DNA of 64,000 nt from Candidatus Heimdallarchaeota archaeon (GCA_016840095.1 JAEOSZ010000111.1:1-64000); one strand, 5' to 3'. Positions 1 through 49,435 are shown, counted from the first letter of the stretch. Translations and numbers: made by a program. Notes: generated by a model from the sequence alone, not told the origin.

Positions 1-66
1 AGTTTGATAATCAAGCCAATTATCAATGAGATGTAAGGTCTGTTTAATCATCTCTTTGTATGACAT
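1..66 (-). CDS. Partial CDS (5' end only, runs off window), hypothetical protein
   Basis: ATG at 66-64 opens MSYKEMIKQTLHLIDNWLDYQT with no stop before the window edge; divergent from the 233 gene. Confidence 0.5.
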   Translation of the reverse strand, partial: MSYKEMIKQTLHLIDNWLDYQT

Positions 67-7614: not shown

Positions 7615-8274
7615 ATGTCAATAGATGTAGATGACAATATCAAAAGACAAGTAAAAGAGATTTTTCAACATATGGAAAATCAAGTAATTGCAAAGTTGTT
7701 TGTAGATAAAGAGAAGTGTTTGACTTGTGCTCAAACAAAAGAAATTATGGACTTGCTAGCTGAACTAGCTCCTGAAAACTTACTAAAGGTTGAGCTTTAC
7801 AATAAAGAAGAGAATCCACCTGAAATTCAGAAGTACAAGATTGAAAGATATCCAACAATACTTCTACATGGAAAGGAAGAATACAATGTTGTGATAACTG
7901 GTATACCAAGTGGATATGAATTTGGTTCCTTAGTTGAAGATATATTAGATATCTCTGCTGGAAAAATCACTCTCAAAAAGGAAAATCTAGAGAAAATTAA
8001 GAAAATTGACAAACCAATGAAAATTCAAGTTTTCGTTACACCAACCTGTCCATATTGTCCTGCTGCTGTAAGATTAGCACACAAAGCTGCAATGGCAAAT
8101 CTAAATATTTACGGAGAAATGGTTGAAGCTACAGAGTTTCCATTATTATCTCAGAAATATTTCGTAATGGGAGTACCTAAAACAGTTATCAATGAAGGTG
8201 CTGTAGAATTCGAAGGATCTTATCCAGAAGATAACTTTGTAGAAAAATTAATGGAAGCTTATGAAAAAGCTTAA
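7615..8274 (+). CDS. Protein disulfide oxidoreductase (PDO, two thioredoxin folds)
   Basis: CLTC and CPYC active sites, GIPSGYEF, VMGVPKT; GGTGA RBS upstream. Confidence 0.9.
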   Translation: MSIDVDDNIKRQVKEIFQHMENQVIAKLFVDKEKCLTCAQTKEIMDLLAELAPENLLKVELYNKEENPPEIQKYKIERYPTILLHGKEEYNVVITGIPSGYEFGSLVEDILDISAGKITLKKENLEKIKKIDKPMKIQVFVTPTCPYCPAAVRLAHKAAMANLNIYGEMVEATEFPLLSQKYFVMGVPKTVINEGAVEFEGSYPEDNFVEKLMEAYEKA

Positions 8275-8302
8275 TTCCATTTTTTTATCTTATTTTTAAA
8301 AA

Positions 8303-9481
8303 TCAATCATCTTGAATAATTTCACCTGGATCTTGTAGTTCTTCCTCGGGTTCTGGCTCAGGTTCTGGCTCTGGCTCAGCTTCTGGTTCTAGTTCTGGTT
8401 CTGGTTCTAGTTCAGCTTCTGGTTCAGCTTCTGGCTCTGGCTCAGCTTCTGGTTCAGCTTCTGGCTCTAGTTCAGGTTCTGGTTCAGCTTCTGGCTCTGG
8501 TTCAGGTTCTGGTTCTTTAGTGTCTTCAACTTGATCCGGTAATACTATTTCTTCAGTTTCTTCAGCTTGTTCTTCTCCCTCTTCCTCCTCTTTCTCGAAC
8601 CGTTTCTTATCCTTGAATAGTTTTTTCAGATTTTGTTCAACAATATCTACAACTGTTTTCTTCTGCATCTCTACTTCATTTAACTTCAGTTTAACGTCTT
8701 CTTCAGTCAGAACTTTTTTTGATTTTTTGTCTTCTTCGACAATCATAGCATTAACATAATCCTTTATCATATTCAGTCTCATATCTAATGCTTTGAAAGT
8801 TTCATGACTATCAACTTCAGTAATTTGATTTTTGACACCTTGTAATTCTAGAAGATATTGTTGTAGTTGAAAAGCATAATTTTCAAGCTTGTCAACCATT
8901 TGGAATACTCTCTTGTTGAGTTCTTTTTCTTCAATGTCTGCTTTAGTTACTCTTGCTTTTCTATCTTCTTTATCTGTGAAGAAAAGAATATGTACTTTTC
9001 CATAGACATAGAGTAAGAAAGGTAATGCACATAACATCACAAACACTGGAACAAAACTGATCAAGTAGATTGCAGCAATATCAGGTAAAGCTGGATATAG
9101 AGTGAAGAGAGGTAGCAATGCTTGTTCAAAAGCTGGAATAGTTTCATTTAGTATTATTGTGATAGCTCCGTAGAAGAGAACTACAGGTATTGAAATTCCT
9201 AGAGATTTCAAAAGTGGCATAAGCATATTAAATGTAGTATCTAATGAAACTTCATCTTTATACTGGTACAAACATTCTGTAACTGCTATTAATGCCACAA
9301 GAAAAGCTAGTGGAATTTCGAAAATTGCTAATATTAAAACATGTTTTCCAAAAACTGGTAAAAGGAGCAAACTAAATGCAGCTCCAACAATTAATGCGAA
9401 AATACTTTGATTAAGATTTCTCGTCATTCGAACATGAGGCATAATTATCATAAGACTTTGATTCAAAAAAAGGTTTTGCAT
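8303..9481 (-). CDS. Membrane protein (about 4 TM) with coiled coil and acidic Pro/Glu repeat tail
   Basis: N-terminal hydrophobic helices, charged helical middle, EPEPEAEPE repeats; true start probably a downstream ATG (MPHVR or MTRNL). Confidence 0.7.
8341..8516 (-). repeat. Intragenic 6/18-bp tandem repeats encoding (E-P/A/L)n
   Basis: Runs of ttctggctc/ttctggttc/ttcagc units on the + strand; boundaries approximate. Confidence 0.85.
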
Positions 9482-9563
9482 GAAGGAAAAGAATTCAATT
9501 TCTTACTACAACCTTGTAATTCCACAAACTTTTATAATTATTGTATTTTTGATGTTTTAGAAA

Positions 9564-10859
9564 ATGAATTCCAAATCAGTAGCTCTGAGTCTTACACTTA
9601 TGTTTTTAGCAATCTCTATCATTCTTCCCCAACAAAATATCTTGTCAGAACAAGGAGAAATAATTGAACCACCTCAGTTGAATTACTATGCTAATTCTCC
9701 AGATGAGTTTTTCAATGAAACCCAAAATCCAAGATATGCTCTTGTCACAAGGCCTTTTGGATTAATCGAGTATCCAAATAAAGCAAATCCTTCAATTATT
9801 GTCTACAATGAGAATTTAAACATAATTGCAAATGCATCTAGTGGATCTACAAATTGGAATTTCTCGTTACATAGCCCCGGTCTATCTCAAATCTTGAATA
9901 TAGTTTCTTCAAAATATGAAAATAATAAGTGGTATTTTCAAACATTACCCACACAAATGGTAGAAGGGCTATATGATTTACAGTTAAATTGTAGCACAGG
10001 AGATGATTATCAAACACATGCAGTGAAAATTGTTGAGGACAAAACTTATCCATTTACATTTGTTCATATGTCAGATCTTCATTTTCCTGCATATTATGAA
10101 GATTTCAATACTTCAGATGTTAATTTAGTGAAGATTGCAGAAGTTAAAGCATTAAATCCAGATTTTGTGATTGTTACCGGAGATATAATGCATGGTCCGA
10201 CTAGATATTTTCTTGATCCTTCAAATGATAAAGTAATGAGAGGAGAAATTCAGCTTAAACTTGCACTTTGGGCTTTAGATACTCTCGATCTTCCCGTTTT
10301 CCTGATACATGGTAACCACGAACATTCTCAAAGTTTAATGGTCCCAGATATCATTGAAGATAATTGGTATAAGTATATGGGGCCAATTCGTTATCAAAAT
10401 TTCACCTTCCTAGATTGGTCAATGATTGGCTTTGGTCATTCTTTTCCAGGATTGACTAGTGAAGAATTTCAAAAAGTAGATCAAATTTTAGCTGAAAATA
10501 GTGATGAAGCAACTATTTTGTACTATCATCATTTTGATTTTCCACAAGGAAATGGACAACCTTTAAGTTTTCTTCGAAGATTTCCTATAGAAGTCACTCT
10601 TTTCGGTCACGAGCATGTTGAACAACTTTACATGGACAATGGAATTCTTTATCATTGTCAAGAGCCTTTGTTCAATGGCGCTTTCACTGAATTTACTATC
10701 CTGAATGAAACTAGTTTGACAGTTGATTCACAGACTTTTACATTTGAGTTGATTCCTTATACACCTCCAACAACATCGAAAACAAGTTTGACTCCAATTC
10801 TTGTTATAATTGGACTAGTTTCATATTCATTAGTCAAGAAAAAGAAAGTCAAAGCATAA
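9564..10859 (+). CDS. Secreted calcineurin-like metallophosphoesterase with C-terminal membrane anchor
   Basis: SDLH, TGD, HGNHE, YHH and GHEH metal motifs; signal peptide; Thr/Pro linker, TM and KKKK tail. Confidence 0.85.
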   Translation: MNSKSVALSLTLMFLAISIILPQQNILSEQGEIIEPPQLNYYANSPDEFFNETQNPRYALVTRPFGLIEYPNKANPSIIVYNENLNIIANASSGSTNWNFSLHSPGLSQILNIVSSKYENNKWYFQTLPTQMVEGLYDLQLNCSTGDDYQTHAVKIVEDKTYPFTFVHMSDLHFPAYYEDFNTSDVNLVKIAEVKALNPDFVIVTGDIMHGPTRYFLDPSNDKVMRGEIQLKLALWALDTLDLPVFLIHGNHEHSQSLMVPDIIEDNWYKYMGPIRYQNFTFLDWSMIGFGHSFPGLTSEEFQKVDQILAENSDEATILYYHHFDFPQGNGQPLSFLRRFPIEVTLFGHEHVEQLYMDNGILYHCQEPLFNGAFTEFTILNETSLTVDSQTFTFELIPYTPPTTSKTSLTPILVIIGLVSYSLVKKKKVKA

Positions 10860-38751: not shown

Positions 38752-39405
38752 TTACTGCTTTTCAGGTTTTTGGGCTACAACCCAGATATAACCCCTTCTG
38801 TCTTTTGGACTAACAAGTCGAACTTCTTTAGCTATTGAAAATATCTTCCAACCCTTTAATGCTTGTTTAATCTCAGTCATCGTAATAAAGCGAATTGGAG
38901 GTTCTGTTCTAAAATGAGGTTTTACATTACCACCAAAGAGAAAGAAACCTCCTTGTTTAACTGAATCAAGAAGTTCATACAATTTTGACAATGCATTATC
39001 ATAAAGATACTGAAGACATTGAATTGCTAAAATTACATCGTAGCTTTCAGGTTCCAAAACTAGATTTTCAATTGTCTCACATAATATGTCCATTTTTTCT
39101 TCTATTTTTAGTGCTTTAGCCCTTTTTTTAGTTAATTCTACTGCAGATTGAAGTATATCTATAGCTGTAACATGATAGCCCAGTTGAGCTAAATAACATG
39201 CATCAATTCCATCTCCAGTTGCTAAATCAAGAGCCTTTTTTCCAGTTACATCTTGATCATGAGTAAAAAATGAGAATTCTAGTGGAGCATAATGGACAAA
39301 GTGAGGTGAAAGTTTGTCTAGTTGTCCCTCAACTTGTTTCTTGTAAAGATTATCCCAACCTTCCATATATTTATCAGGATTTAATGTAGGGTACTTCTTT
39401 GTCAT
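38752..39405 (-). CDS. Class I SAM-dependent methyltransferase (TehB-like)
   Basis: ALDLATGDG.DA.YLA..GY.VTAID, YDVI, VKQGG. Confidence 0.85.
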   Translation of the reverse strand: MTKKYPTLNPDKYMEGWDNLYKKQVEGQLDKLSPHFVHYAPLEFSFFTHDQDVTGKKALDLATGDGIDACYLAQLGYHVTAIDILQSAVELTKKRAKALKIEEKMDILCETIENLVLEPESYDVILAIQCLQYLYDNALSKLYELLDSVKQGGFFLFGGNVKPHFRTEPPIRFITMTEIKQALKGWKIFSIAKEVRLVSPKDRRGYIWVVAQKPEKQ

Positions 39406-39457: not shown

Positions 39458-39512
39458 CAAAATTATGGGAAAAAGTTTAGTATTCGAAATAGAATTTTAA
39501 TTGGGAGATATT

Positions 39513-41174
39513 ATGAATCTAAAAAGAAAATTTATTGTTTTTCTTCTAGCTATAATTGTTTTGAATCTATCATTTTCTTTTGCTGAAGCAAGAGAACAAG
39601 AAACTCCATCATCCATTCCGGAATTAGATTATTATTTCGAAGTTCCTTCTATGTACACAGAGATTACAATTCATGAAGATGGTTCTATAGACATTTATTA
39701 CAGAATGGAATTTTACACTCCATCGGAAGTAATAGATGTAATAGATATTGGTTTTCCAAACGTATACTACAAGTTGAAATCTGTTAAAGCTTGGTTAAAT
39801 GGAACAGAAATCCAGGATATAAGAAAAAGTGAAGTAGTAGATATTGGTGTAGAAGTCTGGCTTGATGAAGTTGGATATATTTATGCTGGCCAAACTGGTG
39901 TTTTTGAGATTGAATGCCACAACCCAAAAATGGTTTACAAAGATAATATAGACGGTTTAGCTTCGGTTGTATTCTATCAGACTTGGTACGGTTATGCATA
40001 TTCGTATGGCACAACAAACAGGACTGTTCGATTTTACTTTCCTGAAGATTTAACTAACATAGCAGAAGTAGATTATAGAATCGCAAGTGGGTCTGAATTT
40101 ACTAGTGTAGCGAGCTCTCCAGATGGACCATATGTACAATTTTCTACTAGTGGTAATCCATATGATTCCTATGATGTGGGTGTAGCTTTTCCTGAAGAAT
40201 ATTCAAAGACTTTCAATCCTTTCTGGACATTGACAGTTTGGGGAAGTCTTGTTAGATACCCTATGGCTACTGTTATAATTTCAATTATTATTTTTGCGAT
40301 AATTATCGCTATTATTAGAAGTATAAGAAATGCTAGAAGATATCTCCCACCTTCTATTAGTTCGTTAGGTGGAGGTGTAAGAGAGGATCTATCTCCATCT
40401 GAAGTAGCTCTCCTCTTTGAACGACCTCTAACGCAAGTAGCATCATTAATGCTTTTCGAACTGATGGAAAAAGGATATGCCCATATCCAAACAAAAGAAC
40501 CTGAATTAAGACTAGAAATTACAGCAACTGATCCAGTTATTGCTGATTTTTCAAAACCTCATAAAACATTAGCAATTGGTATAAGAAAAAGAAATAAAGA
40601 AGATGAGAAATGGAGAAGAGGTGCTGCTTCTGGAGCAATACCAAAAGAGCCAGTTCATCAAACAGATTTAAAAAATGCACTCGTTGCTCAAATAAAGAGT
40701 TTAGCTAAGAAAATGAAAGGATTCTCATCTAGAAAAACCAGAGATTATTATGAATCTATCATTGACAAAGCTTGGCAAGAAATGAGTAAAGAAAATCCTG
40801 AATTACAAAATGCTTTCCTCTGGATCATGGTAGATGAGAAGTATGAATCTAGGTTAGAAGAATATGGAAGAGAATACTATTATCCAAGATGGTATGTCTA
40901 TAGCTATTTCTACTATGTTGGAGGATCACGACCTTCAAGAACTTCTGGTAGTACATTTTTGAGAATAAACCAAAGAGGAAATATTTCACAAATAGCTCCT
41001 GTCCAATCATTCATGTCAGGATTAGTACATAAACCAGGGTCTTTACGAGATTCTGTAAAAAACATAACTCGACCAGCTCCTTCTAGATCAAGTGGTAGCA
41101 GTCGAGGTTATTCAGGAGGAGGGTGTGCTTGTGCATGTGCTTGTGCATGTGCTTGTGCTGGAGGTGGTAGATAA
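39513..41174 (+). CDS. DUF2207-like single-pass membrane protein with C-terminal (Cys-Ala)6 tail; candidate RiPP-like precursor/substrate
   Basis: Signal peptide; ITIHEDGSIDIYY ectodomain; TM (VIISIIIFAIIIAII); LSPSEVALL..LFELMEKGY; S/G/R linker; GGGCACACACACACAGGGR; GGGAG RBS before ATG 39513. Confidence 0.8.
   Translation: MNLKRKFIVFLLAIIVLNLSFSFAEAREQETPSSIPELDYYFEVPSMYTEITIHEDGSIDIYYRMEFYTPSEVIDVIDIGFPNVYYKLKSVKAWLNGTEIQDIRKSEVVDIGVEVWLDEVGYIYAGQTGVFEIECHNPKMVYKDNIDGLASVVFYQTWYGYAYSYGTTNRTVRFYFPEDLTNIAEVDYRIASGSEFTSVASSPDGPYVQFSTSGNPYDSYDVGVAFPEEYSKTFNPFWTLTVWGSLVRYPMATVIISIIIFAIIIAIIRSIRNARRYLPPSISSLGGGVREDLSPSEVALLFERPLTQVASLMLFELMEKGYAHIQTKEPELRLEITATDPVIADFSKPHKTLAIGIRKRNKEDEKWRRGAASGAIPKEPVHQTDLKNALVAQIKSLAKKMKGFSSRKTRDYYESIIDKAWQEMSKENPELQNAFLWIMVDEKYESRLEEYGREYYYPRWYVYSYFYYVGGSRPSRTSGSTFLRINQRGNISQIAPVQSFMSGLVHKPGSLRDSVKNITRPAPSRSSGSSRGYSGGGCACACACACACAGGGR
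41124..41159 (+). repeat. Hexamer repeat TGTGC(T/A) x6 encoding (CA)6
   Basis: tgtgct tgtgca tgtgct tgtgca tgtgct tgtgct, in frame. Confidence 0.95.
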
Positions 41175-42478
41175 TGGTTAAATCTAAAGTATTCCATCAA
41201 AGAAATCTAGATACAACAGCTAGAATGCATCTAAGAAAAGAGAAAGGTGGAACTGGTATTTTACTAGTCAATGCCACTATGATTCTTCATCTTAATAAAA
41301 CAGCAACTGATTTTGTATCAAGAATAATTGCTGGAAAAAGTGATATTGATATTATTCTAGAAATGAAGAAGAAATATAGAGTTTCAGTAGAACAATTGGA
41401 GATTGATTTGGAAGATCTTAAAACAAAGATTAATCAGCTCATGACTACTCCCGATATAGATCCTGTACAGCATTTGGCACAAGATATCAATCCTTTATTT
41501 GAAACTCCTTTCTCAGCTCCTTTAAGAGTGGATTTAGCTTTAACCTACAAATGTAATAACAAATGCACTAAATGTTACGTGGAATCTACAAGGGAAATTA
41601 AAGAACTATCTACAGAGGAATGGAAACAAGTTCTCGATAATTTATGGGACATAGGAGTACCACATGTTACTTTTACTGGAGGAGAACCTACACTTAGAAA
41701 AGATTTGCCAGAATTGGTAGAATATGCAGAAGATTTGGGGATTATAACTGGTTTGATAACTAATGGAAGAGCACTAAAAGATAAAGATCTAGTAGATAAA
41801 CTTGTAACTGCTGGAATAGATCATTTTCAACTAACTATTGAGAGTCATGATTCGAAAATACATGATAAACTATCTGAAGCTGAAGGTGCATGGAAAGAAA
41901 CAGTTCAAGCTATAAAGAATATTGTTCCAACTCCAGTATATATTATGACTAATACAACCTTAACACCATTTAATATTAAAGACATAGAAAAAACAGTCGA
42001 ATTCTTGGGTTCATTGGGGATTGATCATTTCGCTGCAAACAGTATAATAAAATCAGGTGGAGGAAAGCAGGAAGAGTTTGCTCTTACTTTCGAAGAGTTA
42101 GATGATACTCTAACTAAAATTCTCAAAACAGCTGAAATGCAAAAAATGTCATTTATCTGGTATAGTCCTACAAGGTACTGTGATTTCAATCCAATTGAGA
42201 AAGGACTAGGGATGAAGCAATGTACTGCAGCTCATATTGCAATGGCTATAGAGCCTGATGGATCCGTACTTCCATGTCAAAGCTACTTTGAACCTTTAGG
42301 AAATATTCTTACAACCAAATGGAGAAAGATATGGAATCATAAAATTGCTAAAAATTTGCGTAAAATGAAATACCTGGACGAAGAATGTCTTGATTGTCCT
42401 GAGCGAGAATTATGTGGTGGTGGATGTCCACTGAATTATTCAGCTCCATCAAGTATTTGCAAGGAAGCATTTTCATGA
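41174..42478 (+). CDS. Radical SAM/SPASM enzyme with N-terminal PqqD-like RiPP recognition element (PqqE/AlbA-like architecture)
   Basis: N-terminal LNKTA....I..GKS..DI.....YRV...LE.D RRE-like pattern; CNNKCTKC; TGGEP; ITNG; SPASM with 8 Cys (..PDGSVLPC..LGNI..CLDC....LCGGGCP); start overlaps upstream stop (TAATG). Confidence 0.9.
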   Translation: MVKSKVFHQRNLDTTARMHLRKEKGGTGILLVNATMILHLNKTATDFVSRIIAGKSDIDIILEMKKKYRVSVEQLEIDLEDLKTKINQLMTTPDIDPVQHLAQDINPLFETPFSAPLRVDLALTYKCNNKCTKCYVESTREIKELSTEEWKQVLDNLWDIGVPHVTFTGGEPTLRKDLPELVEYAEDLGIITGLITNGRALKDKDLVDKLVTAGIDHFQLTIESHDSKIHDKLSEAEGAWKETVQAIKNIVPTPVYIMTNTTLTPFNIKDIEKTVEFLGSLGIDHFAANSIIKSGGGKQEEFALTFEELDDTLTKILKTAEMQKMSFIWYSPTRYCDFNPIEKGLGMKQCTAAHIAMAIEPDGSVLPCQSYFEPLGNILTTKWRKIWNHKIAKNLRKMKYLDEECLDCPERELCGGGCPLNYSAPSSICKEAFS

Positions 42479-43230
42479 AACCTAACAATGATGTTGATTG
42501 GGGATCAGAAATCCATGAGCAATTTGTTAGACAAGCACAATGGACAGAATCTATAAGGAACAAAATTTATCCACAAGTGAACCTGAGAGGAGCTAAAAAA
42601 GTTCTAGAAGTGGGCTGCGGAACAGGAGTAATCACAAACGAAATAAGAAAGAGAACACAGGCAAAAATAACAGCTATTGACTTAGACAAGGAAATGCTAC
42701 AAACAGCTGAAGAAAATGTGAAGAATGTCACATTTAAACAAGAGGAAGTAGAAAAACTATCAATGAGATCAAATACATTTGATGTAGTTTTATGTCAATA
42801 TCTCTTTCTATGGCTATCTGAACCTGAAAAAGCAATTAGTGAAATGAGTAGGGTTTGTAAGAAAAAAGGATTTGTTGTAGCTCTTGCAGAACCAGATTAT
42901 GGGGGGTGGATTGAATACCCGGATTTCCAATTGGGAAGACATCATATGAATTATCTAAAACGAGAAGGAGCAGATCCATTCATGGGAAGAAAGCTTAGGT
43001 ATCTGTTTGAAACTGCAGATCTTGAAACATCACTTGGGGTTATTGCTCAGACATGGGACAAAAAACATCTCTTAATGAACATTGAAGAAGAATGGAAGCG
43101 TGTTTACAGCTCAAAAATAATATCAGAGATGGAATATAAAGACATGATAAGGATGGAAAAAGAAGCAATTAATGAAAACAAAAGAACTATTTTCATGCCT
43201 GTTTTTTATGCAATAGGAAGAAAAAGGTAA
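42475..43230 (+). CDS. Class I SAM-dependent methyltransferase
   Basis: VLEVGCGTG, AIDLD, FDVV, EM.RVCKKKG..VA.AEPD; ATG 42475 in ATGA overlap with rSAM stop. Confidence 0.88.
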   Translation: MKPNNDVDWGSEIHEQFVRQAQWTESIRNKIYPQVNLRGAKKVLEVGCGTGVITNEIRKRTQAKITAIDLDKEMLQTAEENVKNVTFKQEEVEKLSMRSNTFDVVLCQYLFLWLSEPEKAISEMSRVCKKKGFVVALAEPDYGGWIEYPDFQLGRHHMNYLKREGADPFMGRKLRYLFETADLETSLGVIAQTWDKKHLLMNIEEEWKRVYSSKIISEMEYKDMIRMEKEAINENKRTIFMPVFYAIGRKR

Positions 43231-43516: not shown

Positions 43517-44080
43517 ATGAGTGAGTCTAACGTTCAACATTTCAAACTTTTAGAGAAGAAATTTGATATAGAAGAAGACATCTACAAGAAGCTTGGAAAC
43601 CTTCAAGACCTAAAGAAGAAAATTGCTAAAGAAAACAAGCATCGAGCTAGAGATAACCGAGAGCGAGAGGAACATCTCATCAAAAAGGCTGAGTATGAGA
43701 ATCAAGGTGTACCTGATAAAGCTTTGAAGAGTGAAGTTTCTGCTAAGAAGAAAGAAGCAGCTATTGCAGAGAAAGATTATAAAATCAAAGATCTGGAAAG
43801 AAAAATTCAGAAGGTCGAGGAAGAATTAGAGAAGCTTGAGTTTGAACTGAAAGAAGCAGAAGCAGATATTGATGCTCATGACATGGGAGAACCTACATCT
43901 AAATTTGAGCCAGAACCTGAACCTGAATACAAACCTGAACCTGCATCAGCTTATGTGCCATTAGAACCTACAGTTCTTGATGATGAAGATTATTCAGAAG
44001 ATGAAACCGATGATGAAGATTATTCAGAAGATGAAACTGATGATGAACCTCTAACAACAACATACGATGATTACAGCTAG
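43517..44080 (+). CDS. Coiled-coil protein with acidic repeat tail, hypothetical
   Basis: K/E-rich heptads then EPEPE and DDEDYSEDET repeats. Confidence 0.7.
   Translation: MSESNVQHFKLLEKKFDIEEDIYKKLGNLQDLKKKIAKENKHRARDNREREEHLIKKAEYENQGVPDKALKSEVSAKKKEAAIAEKDYKIKDLERKIQKVEEELEKLEFELKEAEADIDAHDMGEPTSKFEPEPEPEYKPEPASAYVPLEPTVLDDEDYSEDETDDEDYSEDETDDEPLTTTYDDYS
43979..44047 (+). repeat. 30-bp tandem repeat (2.3 copies) encoding DDEDYSEDET
   Basis: gatgatgaagattattcagaagatgaaac(c/t) x2 plus gatgatgaa. Confidence 0.9.
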
Positions 44081-44149: not shown

Positions 44150-44542
44150 GTGAATCTTATGGATTTATATGGAACTGCCGATTGGAAAACAGAAAAACAT
44201 GTACCTGTTATTGAAGTAGCAGAGGTAATTAAAACAGGAGAAAAAACTCCAGTAACTGTTAGTGTTGGAAAAGAAATCGCACATCCAAACAAAACAGAAC
44301 ATCATATTTCTTGGATAAAACTAATGTTTTGGCCAGAAGGAGAAAAATACCCCTATCAACTTGGTCTTGCTAATTTTGATGCTCATGGAGCTTCAATAAA
44401 GGGACCAGACACCAGTGGTGTTTACTCAGAACCTTATGCAGTGTTTCAGTTAATTACTGATAAACCAGGTAAGCTAATTGCAACTTCTTATTGTAATATA
44501 CATGGTTTTTGGAAATATGAAAAAGAAGTAAAAGTAGAGTAA
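44150..44542 (+). CDS. sor: Superoxide reductase (neelaredoxin / class II SOR)
   Basis: EKHVP, HPNKTEHHISWI and YCNIHG iron ligands. Confidence 0.92.
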   Translation: MNLMDLYGTADWKTEKHVPVIEVAEVIKTGEKTPVTVSVGKEIAHPNKTEHHISWIKLMFWPEGEKYPYQLGLANFDAHGASIKGPDTSGVYSEPYAVFQLITDKPGKLIATSYCNIHGFWKYEKEVKVE

Positions 44543-44619: not shown

Positions 44620-45387
44620 ATGGATTCTGATTCTAAAGAGACAGATGAAGCATTTGAACAGTTAATTTCAGAAGCAAAAAGACCTCTACATGGATGGGAT
44701 TTCTCTTTTGTTAACAATAGAGTAGTTTCAAGTCCACTAACTTGGAGCTATCATTCAGAGATCTTAAAATATATTAGAAAAGTAGATTCAGTATTAGATA
44801 TGGGTACTGGAGGAGGTGAGTTTTTCTCTTTACTAGAGCCTTTTCCTGAGAAAACCTATGCAACAGAAGCATATGCTCCTAACTATCCTATTGCAAAGAA
44901 AAAATTGGAACCTCTTGGAGTTAAAGTTGTTAAGATAGAGGAAGGTGGAAATCTTCCTTTTGAAGATAAATCATTTGAGCTAATAATTAACAGGCATGAA
45001 GAATACTCATCTAAAGAAGTATATAGAATTCTTACTGATGATGGAATATTCTTGACTCAACAAGTTGGTGGAACTAATGATAATTGGTTAAGAGAGTTCT
45101 TCTTAGGTGATGTAATTAGTGAGTATCAAGAATGGAATTTAGAATTTGCTAAGACTGAATTACAAAATAATGGCTTTAAATTACTTCAAGCAATGGAATG
45201 TTTTCCAAGAAAAAGAATCTTTGATGTTGGTGCAATCGTATTTTATCTACATGCTGCTCCATGGGAAGTACCAGATTTTACAGTAGAAAAATATAAGGAT
45301 AAATTATATGAATTACACCGTCAGATTCTGAACGAGGGATACATCGAATACTCGAGTCATAGATTTTTGATTAAAGCAATCAAATGA
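44620..45387 (+). CDS. Class I SAM-dependent methyltransferase
   Basis: GWDFS, LDMGTGGGE, LPF....FELIINRH, F.TQQVG. Confidence 0.88.
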   Translation: MDSDSKETDEAFEQLISEAKRPLHGWDFSFVNNRVVSSPLTWSYHSEILKYIRKVDSVLDMGTGGGEFFSLLEPFPEKTYATEAYAPNYPIAKKKLEPLGVKVVKIEEGGNLPFEDKSFELIINRHEEYSSKEVYRILTDDGIFLTQQVGGTNDNWLREFFLGDVISEYQEWNLEFAKTELQNNGFKLLQAMECFPRKRIFDVGAIVFYLHAAPWEVPDFTVEKYKDKLYELHRQILNEGYIEYSSHRFLIKAIK

Positions 45388-45946: not shown

Positions 45947-48900
45947 ATGAAGAGAAGAATATTTGGTTTATTCTTAGCATGCATGATTCTCTCACAAAGC
46001 TACTTCTTCTCAAATGCCACATTTGATGATTCTTCTGAACTCGAAATTCAATCCATGGGAGAAAGAGTTAGATGGAATTATGAATTAGACGATTGGATTG
46101 GAGGGTCACCAACTATAGCCGATTTTGATAGAGATGGCTATTTTGATATAATTGTACCATGCCTAGATGGTACTCTGCGTTGTTTGGATTATCAAGGAAA
46201 TGAAAAATGGTTTTTTGATGCAGGTAGTCCCGTCAGAAATCCACTCATTATTGACATTGATAATAATGGAGATCTAGAGATACTTTTTGGAACTAATGGA
46301 GGTAGAGTATATTGCATTGAACCTGAAGGGACATTAAAATGGAGAAAAACCCTTGATACTGCTGTATATGATATCAATGCTGTTGATTTAGACAATGATG
46401 GAGTTAGGGAAGTTATTGTAACATGTTGGAAGAATGTGAATTGTCTATCAACTGATGGTACTTTGTTGTGGAGTTTCTACTTAGAATCATTAGATATTAG
46501 CCATGAAATTGCCATAGGGGATGTGGACGGAGATAATCAATATGAAGTTTTAGTGGCAGATTATATCCCAAACGCTCATTACTCATCTCTCTATTGTCTA
46601 AACTCAACAGGTGGAGTTAGGTGGAAACGAGATTACAATCTAGGGTTAGGCAATTTAGTAACAGCAGATGTAGACTCAGATGGGAAAGATGAGATATTCA
46701 ATTCTAATTACAATGCAATTATGTGTATAAGTGAGAACGGACATGAAGTTTGGAGAACTACAACAGGAGCCTCTACTTTTAATAAAATTTCAGTTTGTGA
46801 TATAGATAATGATTCAGTGTTGGAACTTGTGTTTTATCGAAGTAGTGGAATGATTCAACATATTAATGGAATAACAGGAGCTTTAGAAAGGACCTTAGAT
46901 ATATATTATAGTACTCATGGTAATAGTTTTAGTATAGCTGATCTTGACAATAATGGAAAATATGAGTATATTTATACTACGTGGGATGAAAAAAAATTAG
47001 TTTGTTTAGATGATCAAGGAAATGATAAGTGGGTTCATTCCGCAGTTTATTGGCCAACAGCTGTACCATGTGTGGTGGATCTGGACAATGATGGAGTATT
47101 TGAAATTGTATTTGGTCAATCTAAAATTAATGATTTGTCCAGAGTTACCTGTATAGAACTTTCTGATGTAAGTGAATCAGGAAATGCTCCTTGGTATTGT
47201 TGTGATGGAACAGTAGCAAGAACAAATTTTGGAGATTATGATTTTGATCTGCTAGATACTGTAACTGAAAGATTCTATGGAACAGATGAAACAAACCCTG
47301 ACTCGGATTCAGATGGTCTATTAGATGGGATAGAAGTATTGAGTATTTATAGTGATCCTACAAACCCTGACTCGGATTCAGATGGTCTATTAGATGGCTG
47401 GGAAATTGAATATGGTCTGGATCCAATAGTGAGTGATGGGGCGCTAGATTTTGATAATGATGGTTTAACAAATATAGACGAAGTAATGTATGGAACAGAT
47501 GTCTTTTCAAATGATACTGACTCAGACGATTTAAGTGATTATGATGAGATATTCATCTATTTCACTAATCCAGTTGAAAATGATACAGATTCGGACCTTC
47601 TAAATGATTATGAAGAAATTTTTACATATTTTACGTTACCAGATAATAATGATACTGATAATGACATAATGTTAGATGGGTGGGAGACGATAAATAGCTT
47701 AGATCCTTTAACAAATGATACAGACTTAGATCCAGATTTGGATAATCTAATTAACCTGTACGAATTCCAACTTAAATCTAATCCCCAAAACAATGACACG
47801 GACTCTGATTATTTAGCTGATGATGAAGAAGTGTACATCTACAATACGGATTTACTAAATGATGATACAGATTTTGATAACTTAATAGATGGTGATGAGG
47901 TTTTTATTCACCTGACTCTACCAAATGACAATGATACAGATGATGATTCAATAATTGATGGGTGGGAGGTCCTATATGGTCTGAATCCCTTAGTCAATGA
48001 TTCATATCTGGATGATGATTCAGATGCTTTAGATAATTTCAACGAATTTGTGTATAATTGTAATCCAAATTTGAACGATACAGATTCTGACAATCTTCTT
48101 GATGGAGAAGAAGTTCTGGTATATGGTTTAAATCCTCTATCTAATGATACAGATTCAGATCTTTTATTTGATTATGATGAACTATTTATTTATTCTACAG
48201 ATCCTGGTTTAAATGATACAGATTCAGATAACTGTCCAGATGGCTGGGAAATTTTCTGTGGACTCAATCCGTTTCTGAATGATTCCTATTCAGATCCTGA
48301 TATTGATGGACTAACTAATATTCAAGAATATCAATACTCAACTCTTCCCTTAGTTAATGATACAGATTCAGATTTGATGCCTGATGGTTGGGAAATAACC
48401 TATGATTTGAATCCTCTAGCAATTGATTCACTCTACGACTTGGATCTTGATGGGTTATCTAATTATTTAGAATTCATTTTTGGATCGAATCCTCAAGAAA
48501 TTGATAGTGACAATGATATAATGGATGACTTTTTCGAATATACTTATGGTCTTGATCCAATGAACCATTCAGATGCTTTAGATGATGCTGATGACGATGG
48601 ATTGATCAATCTGAAGGAATTTTACGAAGGATTTTCACCAATTAACAACGATACAGATTCCGATAGCATGCCTGATGCCTGGGAATATTATAACAGTCTT
48701 AATGCAACAGATGCATCTGATGCTTCAGAAGATTTCGATGGAGATGGGCTAATTAATTCATTAGAGTTCTATTATGGAACCCAACCTGATGATGTAGATT
48801 CTGATGACGATGGTTTTTCAGATTTTAATGAAATCAATAAAGGTTTTGATCCTCTTGATCCTAGTTCTAATCCCGCCATCTCCCGTAGAAATATGTGGAT

Positions 48901-49435
48901 AGCTCTGAATCTTTCTGCTTCTTCACTTCTAGCACTTCTTCTTTACTATATAATTTGGAATAGGAGAAAACAGAAGAAAAAACTTCTAGTTGAGAAAGAG
49001 AAGATGATGGGTTCATTAGGCTTTACTTCGATGGAAGAAATGAATCGAATACAATCCTTAGGTTTTATTTCCAAGAGTGAGTATAACACGATTAAATCAA
49101 TGGGTTTCGATTCTAAACTTGAATATTTGACAGATCAATTAGGTTATTTACTTCTTGATTCATGGCTGAAGGCCGAAGAGCATCATACATATAAGACACA
49201 AATTGCTAAAACTAAATCCACTGCCAAGCTTGAAGAACTTCGAGAAAAAATTGAAGATATTAGCAAATTTCTCTCAAAAACTCAATATTTGATAGACGAT
49301 TATGGTTTGTTGGAAGATGGGTTATTCAATGATTCTTGGATATCATCAATTAGCAATGTTCAAAACATGAGAGTTGAAGTTGAAAAAACCCTTAATCTTT
49401 TGGATGAAAAAATATCTTCCCTTAAGAAGAAATAG
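45947..49435 (+). CDS. Large surface protein: FG-GAP-like beta-propeller, TSP3-like Ca-binding repeat stalk, TM and cytoplasmic helical tail
   Basis: Signal peptide; 8 D(F/I/L/V)DxDG-type repeats; many DxDxDxL.D..E..(G)L(N/D)P repeats; TM then NRRKQKKK. Confidence 0.85.
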   Translation: MKRRIFGLFLACMILSQSYFFSNATFDDSSELEIQSMGERVRWNYELDDWIGGSPTIADFDRDGYFDIIVPCLDGTLRCLDYQGNEKWFFDAGSPVRNPLIIDIDNNGDLEILFGTNGGRVYCIEPEGTLKWRKTLDTAVYDINAVDLDNDGVREVIVTCWKNVNCLSTDGTLLWSFYLESLDISHEIAIGDVDGDNQYEVLVADYIPNAHYSSLYCLNSTGGVRWKRDYNLGLGNLVTADVDSDGKDEIFNSNYNAIMCISENGHEVWRTTTGASTFNKISVCDIDNDSVLELVFYRSSGMIQHINGITGALERTLDIYYSTHGNSFSIADLDNNGKYEYIYTTWDEKKLVCLDDQGNDKWVHSAVYWPTAVPCVVDLDNDGVFEIVFGQSKINDLSRVTCIELSDVSESGNAPWYCCDGTVARTNFGDYDFDLLDTVTERFYGTDETNPDSDSDGLLDGIEVLSIYSDPTNPDSDSDGLLDGWEIEYGLDPIVSDGALDFDNDGLTNIDEVMYGTDVFSNDTDSDDLSDYDEIFIYFTNPVENDTDSDLLNDYEEIFTYFTLPDNNDTDNDIMLDGWETINSLDPLTNDTDLDPDLDNLINLYEFQLKSNPQNNDTDSDYLADDEEVYIYNTDLLNDDTDFDNLIDGDEVFIHLTLPNDNDTDDDSIIDGWEVLYGLNPLVNDSYLDDDSDALDNFNEFVYNCNPNLNDTDSDNLLDGEEVLVYGLNPLSNDTDSDLLFDYDELFIYSTDPGLNDTDSDNCPDGWEIFCGLNPFLNDSYSDPDIDGLTNIQEYQYSTLPLVNDTDSDLMPDGWEITYDLNPLAIDSLYDLDLDGLSNYLEFIFGSNPQEIDSDNDIMDDFFEYTYGLDPMNHSDALDDADDDGLINLKEFYEGFSPINNDTDSDSMPDAWEYYNSLNATDASDASEDFDGDGLINSLEFYYGTQPDDVDSDDDGFSDFNEINKGFDPLDPSSNPAISRRNMWIALNLSASSLLALLLYYIIWNRRKQKKKLLVEKEKMMGSLGFTSMEEMNRIQSLGFISKSEYNTIKSMGFDSKLEYLTDQLGYLLLDSWLKAEEHHTYKTQIAKTKSTAKLEELREKIEDISKFLSKTQYLIDDYGLLEDGLFNDSWISSISNVQNMRVEVEKTLNLLDEKISSLKKK
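47291..47397 (+). repeat. Exact 38-bp direct repeat (47291-47328 and 47360-47397) within the Ca-repeat stalk
   Basis: acaaaccctgactcggattcagatggtctattagatgg twice, 69 bp apart. Confidence 0.9.

Follow-up and report, generated by a model that had tools for sequence, protein, structure and literature searches.

To our knowledge, radical S-adenosylmethionine (SAM)/SPASM enzymes of the kind that mature peptides made by the ribosome and modified after translation (RiPPs) have been examined almost exclusively with short secreted peptides as substrates. SkfB (6EFN), AlbA, CteB (5WGG), and SuiB (5V1Q) all have substrates of this type. StsB from Streptomyces sparsogenes bridges the C2-x-C4-x-C6 core of the peptide StsA to G11, G13, and G15 in a hairpin ladder; BlaA/BlaB is a related pair (PMC10288494). 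Whole-protein substrates have been described as well: CrpC of Methanococcus voltae introduces thioether (ranthionine) cross-links into the adjacently encoded CrpA, within its Cys-rich C-terminal region (PMC13692751), and QhpD, a radical SAM/SPASM enzyme, forms several intramolecular cross-links in QhpC, a subunit that is retained in the final assembly (PMC7876137). Here, we analyze a three-gene cassette at positions 39513-43230 of a 64,000-nucleotide stretch of DNA from Candidatus Heimdallarchaeota archaeon (GCA_016840095.1 JAEOSZ010000111.1:1-64000), the whole of which is referred to as the window. The cassette encodes a membrane protein ending in a Cys-Ala repeat, the CA tail (gene 1), an enzyme composed of a RiPP recognition element (RRE), a radical SAM domain, and a SPASM domain (gene 2), and a methyltransferase (gene 3). 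Sets of this kind occur in numerous anaerobic bacteria and archaea, and their probable role is to modify an entire membrane protein by an undescribed chemistry.

On sequence grounds, this cassette appears to work like an RRE-dependent radical SAM/SPASM maturation system, and by the curated models it is a member of none of the families compared. StsA/StsB resembles it in having an RRE-dependent radical SAM/SPASM enzyme that acts on alternating Cys donors like those of the (CA)n core. However, in that system the peptide is short and free and the RRE stands as a protein of its own, whereas the candidate substrate in the window is a membrane protein, the RRE is fused to the enzyme, and the acceptors would be Ala residues; StsA/StsB(/StsC) also includes neither a methyltransferase nor a membrane protein. 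CrpC/CrpA shares with the window the RRE-radical SAM-SPASM architecture, a whole-protein substrate (a candidate one in the window), and an archaeal origin, but CrpA (28.8 kDa), unlike gene 1, is soluble and contains ten C-x-x-Q/D repeats of 17 residues each. The screen performed in the CrpC study needed a Cys content of at least 5-10% (PMC13692751), so that CA-tail proteins, with 1.3% Cys, lay outside it; the terms 'membrane protein', 'Asgard', and 'CACA' are absent from the main text of that paper. QhpC differs from gene 1 in being small and periplasm-destined, in its Cys-to-Asp/Glu links, in its later processing to a quinone cofactor, and in having no Cys-Ala repeat, membrane anchor, or methyltransferase. 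SkfB, AlbA, CteB, and SuiB are similar to gene 2 over their full length, including the fused RRE, but their short substrates are unlike gene 1. A preliminary description of this DNA knew of no characterized archaeal system of such design; the design now has more precedent than this suggests, since QhpC and CrpA (2026) are published whole-protein substrates of radical SAM enzymes. Neither a Pfam nor an NCBIfam model was found for the CA-tail family, its radical SAM clade, or two accessory proteins described below (a Cys-less radical SAM paralogue and a protein ending in EEPKW), and no paper on any of them was found in the literature covered, which omits most subscription journals.

All three genes lie on the plus strand. 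The open reading frame (ORF) of gene 1 (39513-41174; alternative TTG start at 39501) encodes a 553-aa bitopic membrane protein, gene 2 (41174-42478) the 434-aa RRE-radical SAM-SPASM enzyme, and gene 3 (42475-43230; ATG at 42475) a class I SAM methyltransferase of 251 aa. The gene 1 stop and the gene 2 start overlap in TAATG at 41172-41176, and the gene 2 stop and the gene 3 start in ATGA at 42475-42478. The chain of stop/start overlaps given in the preliminary description was thus found in the sequence at matching coordinates, as was the (CA)6 end of gene 1 followed by GGGR. The latter, the proposed modification site, occupies 41124-41171 (core, 41124-41159) and is written with the codons TGT GCT TGT GCA TGT GCT TGT GCA TGT GCT TGT GCT GGA GGT GGT AGA TAA, so that the C-terminus of the protein reads GGG-(CA)6-GGGR. 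Only one other Cys, C135, is present in gene 1. Also, the absence of a small free precursor peptide nearby, as reported earlier, was upheld: no small free Cys-rich ORF was found among those of the 36-47 kb region of the window. An internal Met at 41013, considered as the start of a 53-aa stand-alone 'precursor', was rejected for lack of conservation of this residue.

Within the gene 1 family, whose mean column identity is 22%, conservation is highest in the tail. Homologues, down to identities of 27-32%, invariably terminate in (CA)n[G(CA)n]GGGR. In an alignment of 135 tails, the last ten residues, CACACAGGGR, were invariant in 133-135 sequences, and G/S predominated at positions -24 to -20. 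A CxCxC variant of the tail was also seen, for example CVCACxSCACxCACVSCACACAGGG. Across taxa of differing GC content the same tail is encoded by mixed Cys and Ala codons. Since one and the same tail, written in differing codons, ends proteins that are only about 30% identical, the Cys-Ala repeat far exceeds anything expected by chance.

A profile search of 1.84 billion representatives, clustered at 50% identity, revealed 1194 clusters of gene 1 homologues at E ≤ 0.001 and 442 at E ≤ 1e-30; 14 homologues were close. Of the 148 best profile matches, 124 possess the CA tail; the other matches are truncated or show a CxCxC variant of it. Among the first 600 pattern matches in species-representative genomes, relatives of gene 1 were confirmed for at least 297. 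The carriers identified in the species-representative scan include, among bacteria, Anaerolineae, Acidobacteriota, Armatimonadota, Cloacimonadota, Zixibacteria, and Fermentibacteria, and, among archaea, Methanomassiliicoccaceae, Thermococci, Heimdall-, Hod-, and Prometheoarchaeota. The Anaerolineae are represented by the cultured Bellilinea caldifistulae, Ornatilinea apprima, and Leptolinea sp. HRD-7, and by a metagenome-assembled genome of Anaerolinea thermophila. The system is not confined to archaea; it is mainly bacterial (Anaerolineae), with a patchy archaeal presence.

For analysis of gene neighborhoods, 84 loci were taken from the species-representative scan with two search patterns. 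One of these was the tail, so that its presence in 84/84 loci is partly circular and 124/148 is the fairer figure. An intact radical SAM orthologue was present in 71 of the 84 loci, mostly starting a few bases from the gene 1 stop; a Cys-less paralogue (pseudo-radical SAM) was found in 45, the methyltransferase in 54, and a Zn-ribbon membrane protein of about 120 aa with the C-terminus E-x-P-K-W in 68. Of ten genomes checked that lack the intact enzyme at the locus, eight hold an intact orthologue elsewhere, with CxxxCxxC-Y, the SPASM Cys residues, and HLR. Gene 1 and the radical SAM orthologue occur in the same 22 of 24 congeners of the window genome; neither was found in the congeners G010 (90% complete) and G019, or in 16 genomes from other families of the order (0/16). 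The full trio is kept in all 12 congeneric loci fetched. The association of CA-tail proteins with this radical SAM clade, proposed earlier as a test, is thus seen in adjacency (71/84), in unlinked copies (8/10), in co-occurrence among congeners, and in one gene fusion (see below). By these genetic data, the tail protein and the gene 2 clade work together.

Linkage is also maintained where gene order has changed. In the group with 3G4 tails, the radical SAM gene and its Cys-less paralogue are located upstream of the tail gene and the methyltransferase downstream. The radical SAM enzymes of this group (Armatimonadota, Myxococcota, and Chloroflexota) form one supported clade apart from the principal clade of Anaerolineae, whose tails are of the 4G3 type. 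This match between enzyme clade and tail type is only suggestive, because the tree was a quick one and related sequences share labels. Some Chloroflexota with 3G4 tails possess two tandem CA-tail paralogues, each tailed (L023:6001-7725 and 7800-9725; also L031 and L067).

Gene 2 was matched by the Pfam models Radical_SAM (9.7e-28) and SPASM (4.5e-10). The cluster motif CxxxCxxC (C127, C131, and C134; 41552-41575), which is followed by an invariant Y135, is present in 63/63 orthologues; Y135 corresponds to catalytic-site position 1, the same as in SkfB. The SPASM domain (42179-42427) carries seven conserved Cys residues (336, 350, 368, 405, 408, 414, and 418) retained in 62-63 of the 63 orthologues. 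The eight Cys counted previously are accordingly reduced to seven, as C429 occurs in only 24/63. Residues 1-92 (41174-41449) comprise the PqqD-like N-terminal domain with the motif R17-x-H19-L20-R21, whose H19, L20, and R21 are invariant in the orthologue alignment. The PqqD match is sub-threshold in the window protein itself (18.4 bits; Pfam cut-off 23.4), and PqqD was detected in 52 of the 63 orthologues (best E 6e-8). The N-terminus in the AlphaFold2 (AF2) model consists of four strands (6-40) followed by three helices (42-91), an RRE-like arrangement. On the orthologue matches and the predicted fold, the PqqD-like N-terminus noted in the preliminary description, which had asked for a check of its identity, is assigned as an RRE.

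The closest solved relatives of gene 2 are SkfB (sequence E 5e-26), SuiB, CteB, and PqqE. Superposition of the model on SkfB, SuiB, and CteB extends to their RREs (Foldseek, 1e-19 with SkfB; TM-score 0.69 over the full length with SuiB). No NCBIfam model reached its cut-off. The scores (cut-offs in parentheses) were 146.8 bits for NirJ2 (TIGR04055; 500), 141.9 for PqqE (TIGR02109; 381), 123 for AhbD (far below the cut-off), 115.2 for SkfB (TIGR04403; 300), 100.7 for StsB (NF045574; 625), 79.7 for AlbA (NF012164; 850), 77.3 for the radical SAM enzyme of the ACGX-repeat system (TIGR04340; 400), 72.8 for PapB (NF047865; 340), and 32.5 for the CrpC family rSAM_vs_C_rich (TIGR04463; 525; match at C122:41522-42022). 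By architecture, gene 2 falls into the class of RRE-dependent radical SAM/SPASM peptide maturases and, from the genetic linkage, may act on a ribosomal peptide or protein of a neighboring gene. A complex prediction for gene 2 (63-row alignment), the last 80 residues of gene 1, three 4Fe-4S clusters, and SAM gave a score of 0.03, which speaks neither for nor against binding. As a separate observation, D96 in the RRE-radical SAM linker (41459-41461) is a Cys in 51/63 orthologues (consensus CPI..L); this Cys may be an extra cluster ligand that was lost or replaced in the Heimdall clade.

The build of gene 1 reported earlier (signal peptide, ectodomain, transmembrane (TM) helix, and cytoplasmic domain) agrees well with both hydropathy and the AF2 model, which was based on 91 sequences and had a mean predicted local distance difference test score (pLDDT) of 86.4. 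The signal peptide comprises residues 1-26 (39513-39590; hydropathy window 5-27, model helix 2-22) and contains the motif ...SFSFAEA. It is followed by an extracytoplasmic beta-sandwich (residues 37-230; 39621-40202) with an Ost1/ribophorin-I-like fold in the model and by a single TM helix (residues 250-274 in the model, about 250-272 by hydropathy; 40260-40334), where hydropathy peaks at 2.96 (250-268). RSIRNARR follows directly after the TM helix, in line with the positive-inside rule, so that the C-terminal half should be cytoplasmic. This half consists of a winged-helix plus helical domain (residues 277-520; 40341-41072), delimited by the AF2 model, the alignment, and an Atlas search, and a Ser/Gly-rich disordered linker (residues 521-537; 41073-41123) along which pLDDT drops from 71 to below 50. 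The domain ends in ...V(T/K)xxT(N/R)PxP, with T519 and P521 invariant among 11 sequences (alignment A1). Residues 532-553 are disordered in the model (pLDDT <50). Being both disordered and cytoplasmic there, the tail would hang free on the inner side of the membrane, within reach of a soluble Fe-S enzyme.

The ectodomain of gene 1 aligned with residues 226-446 of yeast Ost1 with a Z-score of 16.8 and a root-mean-square deviation of 2.5 Å over 179 residues (VIA-align); the next fold class, N-domains of M1 aminopeptidases, reached a Z-score of about 12. In Ost1/ribophorin I, a membrane-proximal lumenal domain precedes the TM helix, the same arrangement as in gene 1, although the resemblance is one of fold only. 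The Pfam model Ribophorin_I gave no match at E ≤ 0.1. Because most members of the gene 1 family are bacterial, the Ost1 likeness looks like an old fold common to DUF2207-type proteins and not like a link between Asgard archaea and eukaryotes.

Gene 1 of the window itself has no Pfam match and no NCBIfam membership; with TIGR04222 it scored 15.7 bits, below the cut-off of 43. DUF2207_C (PF20990) was matched by two of 11 relatives (5e-4), and TIGR04222 likewise by two (5.9e-7). In the language-model Atlas search, the cytoplasmic part of gene 1 was placed beside DUF2207 clusters (0.90-0.95). DUF2207 (PF09972/PF20990) and TIGR04222 proteins have the same overall build as gene 1, from the signal peptide to a Gly-rich low-complexity C-terminal tail, but gene 1 gives a significant match to neither model. 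We read it, from these comparisons, as a distant, divergent relative of the DUF2207/TIGR04222 superfamily and not as a member. Ordinary DUF2207 proteins have Gly/Ser-rich tails; we know of no fixed Cys-Ala motif in them and of no link between these proteins and radical SAM enzymes. Stress and biofilm phenotypes are reported for a mutant of the DUF2207 protein SMU.243 in Streptococcus mutans (PMC10457818).

Gene 3 was confirmed as a class I methyltransferase, the assignment made from the start, by its match to Methyltransf_11 (1.5e-23). No NCBIfam equivalog was identified for it, and among the solved structures nearest to it is that of LahSB, a lanthipeptide methyltransferase, but only at 2e-9. 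Orthologues occur in 54/84 loci and in 12/12 congeneric loci, but none was found at L019, which belongs to the complete genome of Heimdallarchaeum aukensis. Missing from about one-third of the loci, gene 3 is a frequent but dispensable accessory. The three-gene set initially described therefore stands for the window, with the qualification that the methyltransferase is not essential to it and that the fuller bacterial cassette comprises two further parts, the Zn-ribbon protein and the pseudo-radical SAM protein. The Asgard cassettes, including that in the window, represent a minimal form without these two.

The Zn-ribbon protein possesses four invariant Cys residues and an invariant C-terminal E-x-P-K-W (EEPKW in most) in 35 aligned bacterial and euryarchaeal loci (alignment A5). 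In the 68 loci that have it, its gene is located directly upstream of the CA-tail gene; examples are L035:5609-5968 (Bellilinea) and L085:5519-5872 (Methanomassiliicoccaceae). The N-terminus is hydrophobic, with two TM helices by eye. The protein was not present in any Asgard locus, nor was it found by profile in the 89%-complete genome of the window organism, where the best match (E 0.08) covered the TM part only. The pseudo-radical SAM gene (e.g., L035:9089-10273) sits between those of the active enzyme and the methyltransferase. Its product lacks CxxxCxxC, has kept the N-terminal region, and in most copies, including those downstream of gene 1 in Anaerolineaceae, has no Cys in the last 110 residues; it may serve as a substrate chaperone. 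In one metagenomic protein (P0124; 948 aa), an RRE and a Cys-less radical SAM-like domain are followed by a TM segment and then by a complete CA-tail protein ending in CACACAGCACACACAGGGR. Both ends of this fusion would be cytoplasmic, with the TM segment between the joined parts.

Given the genetic linkage, the peptide-handling architecture of gene 2, and a tail that is the most conserved, accessible, and substrate-like part of gene 1, we favor the reading that the radical SAM enzyme modifies the Cys-Ala core of gene 1 in place, with a probability of roughly 55%. Gene 1 would be made as a bitopic protein whose last 30 or so residues, the disordered linker and (CA)n-GGGR, remain free in the cytoplasm. 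The co-translated enzyme would dock on the C-terminal region of gene 1 via its N-terminal RRE, with the folded cytoplasmic domain probably contributing contacts, and would then modify the core without releasing it from the protein. The most likely outcome of such a reaction would be a set of intramolecular sactionine or ranthionine bridges from alternating Cys thiols to opposing Ala/Gly carbons, yielding a hairpin held rigid by multiple bridges, comparable to the StsA ladder (C2-x-C4-x-C6 to G11-x-G13-x-G15). The methyltransferase might add a tailoring methyl group, for which a remaining thiol and the C-terminal carboxylate are candidate targets. The earlier proposal of a RiPP 'precursor' fused to a membrane protein of about 550 aa finds support in the linkage, the RRE, and the architecture; from these we infer the modification.

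The choice of thioethers is tentative and made by analogy. It is favored because the full-length RRE-bearing relatives of gene 2 include SkfB, AlbA, and CteB, which form thioethers (although the fold of SuiB, a Lys-Trp cross-linker, is matched just as well), because StsB bridges the C-x-C-x-C donors onto alternating Gly residues in a hairpin ladder, and because a (CA)n hairpin in odd register sets every Cys opposite Ala or Gly. The tail may instead undergo repeat-wide epimerization, Cys oxidation like that by anSME, or no covalent change. The most complete version of the scheme should be regarded as speculative: the radical SAM enzyme would zip the (CA)n tail of an Ost1-like membrane protein into a Cys-to-Ala thioether ladder, or install another repeat-wide change such as alternating D/L epimerization, with methylation in addition, and the whole would constitute a new, widespread modification class, installed on an intact membrane protein across numerous anaerobic phyla, with a dead radical SAM chaperone and an EEPKW partner.

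Several observations weigh against in-place modification of the tail. The T(N/R)PxP motif forms the end of a confidently folded helix in the AF2 model and is not part of a free leader. The best NCBIfam scores of gene 2 belong to functionally diverse SPASM enzymes (NirJ2, PqqE, AhbD, and SkfB) and, with no equivalog reached, homology leaves its reaction unfixed. Cys-X-Cys strips are classic metal ligands, and the stop/start coupling and the dead paralogue, kept or fused, are equally compatible with a stable complex. The 84 loci were partly picked by the tail pattern itself, and two genomes lack the intact enzyme, although they may be incomplete: G045 (L052) has no radical SAM orthologue and G048 (L061) only the pseudo-enzyme.

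Next to in-place modification, the explanation that survives best, rather unlikely in our estimate, is that the Cys-Ala strip stays unmodified and provides a metal or Fe-S site, or a ligand of the open iron in the auxiliary cluster of the enzyme, with the radical SAM enzyme or its dead paralogue acting as a stable partner or cluster handler. CxC is a classic metal motif, and the alternating Cys would line up six or seven thiols along a single face of the strand. The pseudo-radical SAM protein, found in more than half of the loci (45/84) and in one case fused to the tail protein, suggests binding over turnover, and the translational coupling points to stoichiometric synthesis. Metal binding is also suspected for CrpA, which among protein substrates is the closest precedent. 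Metal sites, however, usually tolerate variation at the X positions, whereas the last three of these hold Ala in 133-135 of 135 tails. Furthermore, all 64 adjacent orthologues with scores of E < 1e-100 contain the radical SAM motif and the seven SPASM Cys are present in 62-63/63, which indicates that catalysis is under selection. Where the locus contains the pseudo-enzyme only, an intact orthologue is encoded elsewhere in four of five genomes, and the RRE is a peptide-presenting domain.

Two improbable explanations accept a reaction but differ as to its product or site. According to the first of these, the tail is a precursor: after modification it would be cut off behind the Gly-rich linker, releasing a small RiPP or else a redox cofactor, in the manner of pyrroloquinoline quinone (PQQ) or mycofactocin, and the membrane protein would be no more than the carrier. 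The leader-linker-core layout is indeed RiPP-like, GG(G) stands directly before the core as in double-glycine leaders, and PqqE and MftC are among the sequence relatives of gene 2. Neighbor clustering, in which antisense or overlapping ORFs were treated as artefacts and clusters present in more than 24 loci were identified, yielded gene 1, the radical SAM proteins, the methyltransferase, and the Zn-ribbon protein as recurrent members, but no conserved peptidase, PCAT (peptidase-containing ATP-binding cassette) transporter, or exporter. A membrane protein of 550 aa with a conserved ectodomain would also be an implausibly costly single-use carrier, and the whole of gene 1 is conserved alongside its tail.

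According to the second, equally improbable, the tail is a docking peptide that brings the radical SAM enzyme and the methyltransferase to the membrane, where their substrate would be something else, for instance a lipid, a small molecule, or the EEPKW end of the Zn-ribbon protein. It is in favor of this explanation that the radical SAM enzyme and the methyltransferase remain paired at loci unlinked from gene 1 (L100 and L101), and that the invariant E-x-P-K-W end of the Zn-ribbon protein coincides with a gene 2 fold like that of the Lys-Trp cross-linker SuiB. However, the Asgard cassettes have no Zn-ribbon protein and yet keep the tail, the radical SAM enzyme, and the methyltransferase; recognition sequences of RREs are normally not Cys repeats, and an invariant Cys repeat is what would be expected of a reaction site. 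Finally, slippage of a (TGTGCW)n hexanucleotide microsatellite in a coincidental neighborhood, prompted by the near-perfect 6-nt tandem repeat that encodes the window tail, was excluded as practically negligible because homologues in many phyla carry the same peptide in mixed codons and GC contents, the copy number is tightly limited, and the association with radical SAM enzymes is genome-wide.

Upstream of gene 1, a second class I methyltransferase (TehB/UbiG-like) is encoded divergently at 38752-39405 on the minus strand. It was considered as a fourth component of the cassette and rejected, since it is kept only in the close relative L020 and not in distant loci. Downstream of the cassette, the window encodes an acidic coiled-coil protein with DEDYSEDETDDE repeats (43517-44080), a desulfoferrodoxin-type superoxide reductase (44150-44542) that is syntenic in the congeners L017, L018, and L020, and a third methyltransferase (44620-45387). 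These downstream genes, including that for superoxide reductase, fit an anaerobic lifestyle. Further on, at 45947-49435, the ORF list contains a surface protein of 1,162 aa that has repeats of the FG-GAP-like and Asp-rich (TSP3-like) types, a TM segment, and a cytoplasmic tail that also bears repeats. Scans for promoters, terminators, and tRNAs gave no signal above background.

Few radical SAM/SPASM enzymes act on whole proteins (QhpC; CrpA, 2026). If in-place modification of the CA tail is true, the target here is an inward-facing tail of a membrane protein, of the DUF2207 type with a nearly invariant end of ten residues, and the substrate family appears to be much larger and sharply defined. 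The idea is directly testable, as Bellilinea, Ornatilinea, Leptolinea, and Anaerolinea are cultured and the tail is a convenient tryptic peptide. The result would show whether dead radical SAM paralogues act as substrate chaperones. It would also assign a chemistry to an orphan clade of radical SAM enzymes and provide the first functional handle on DUF2207-like proteins.

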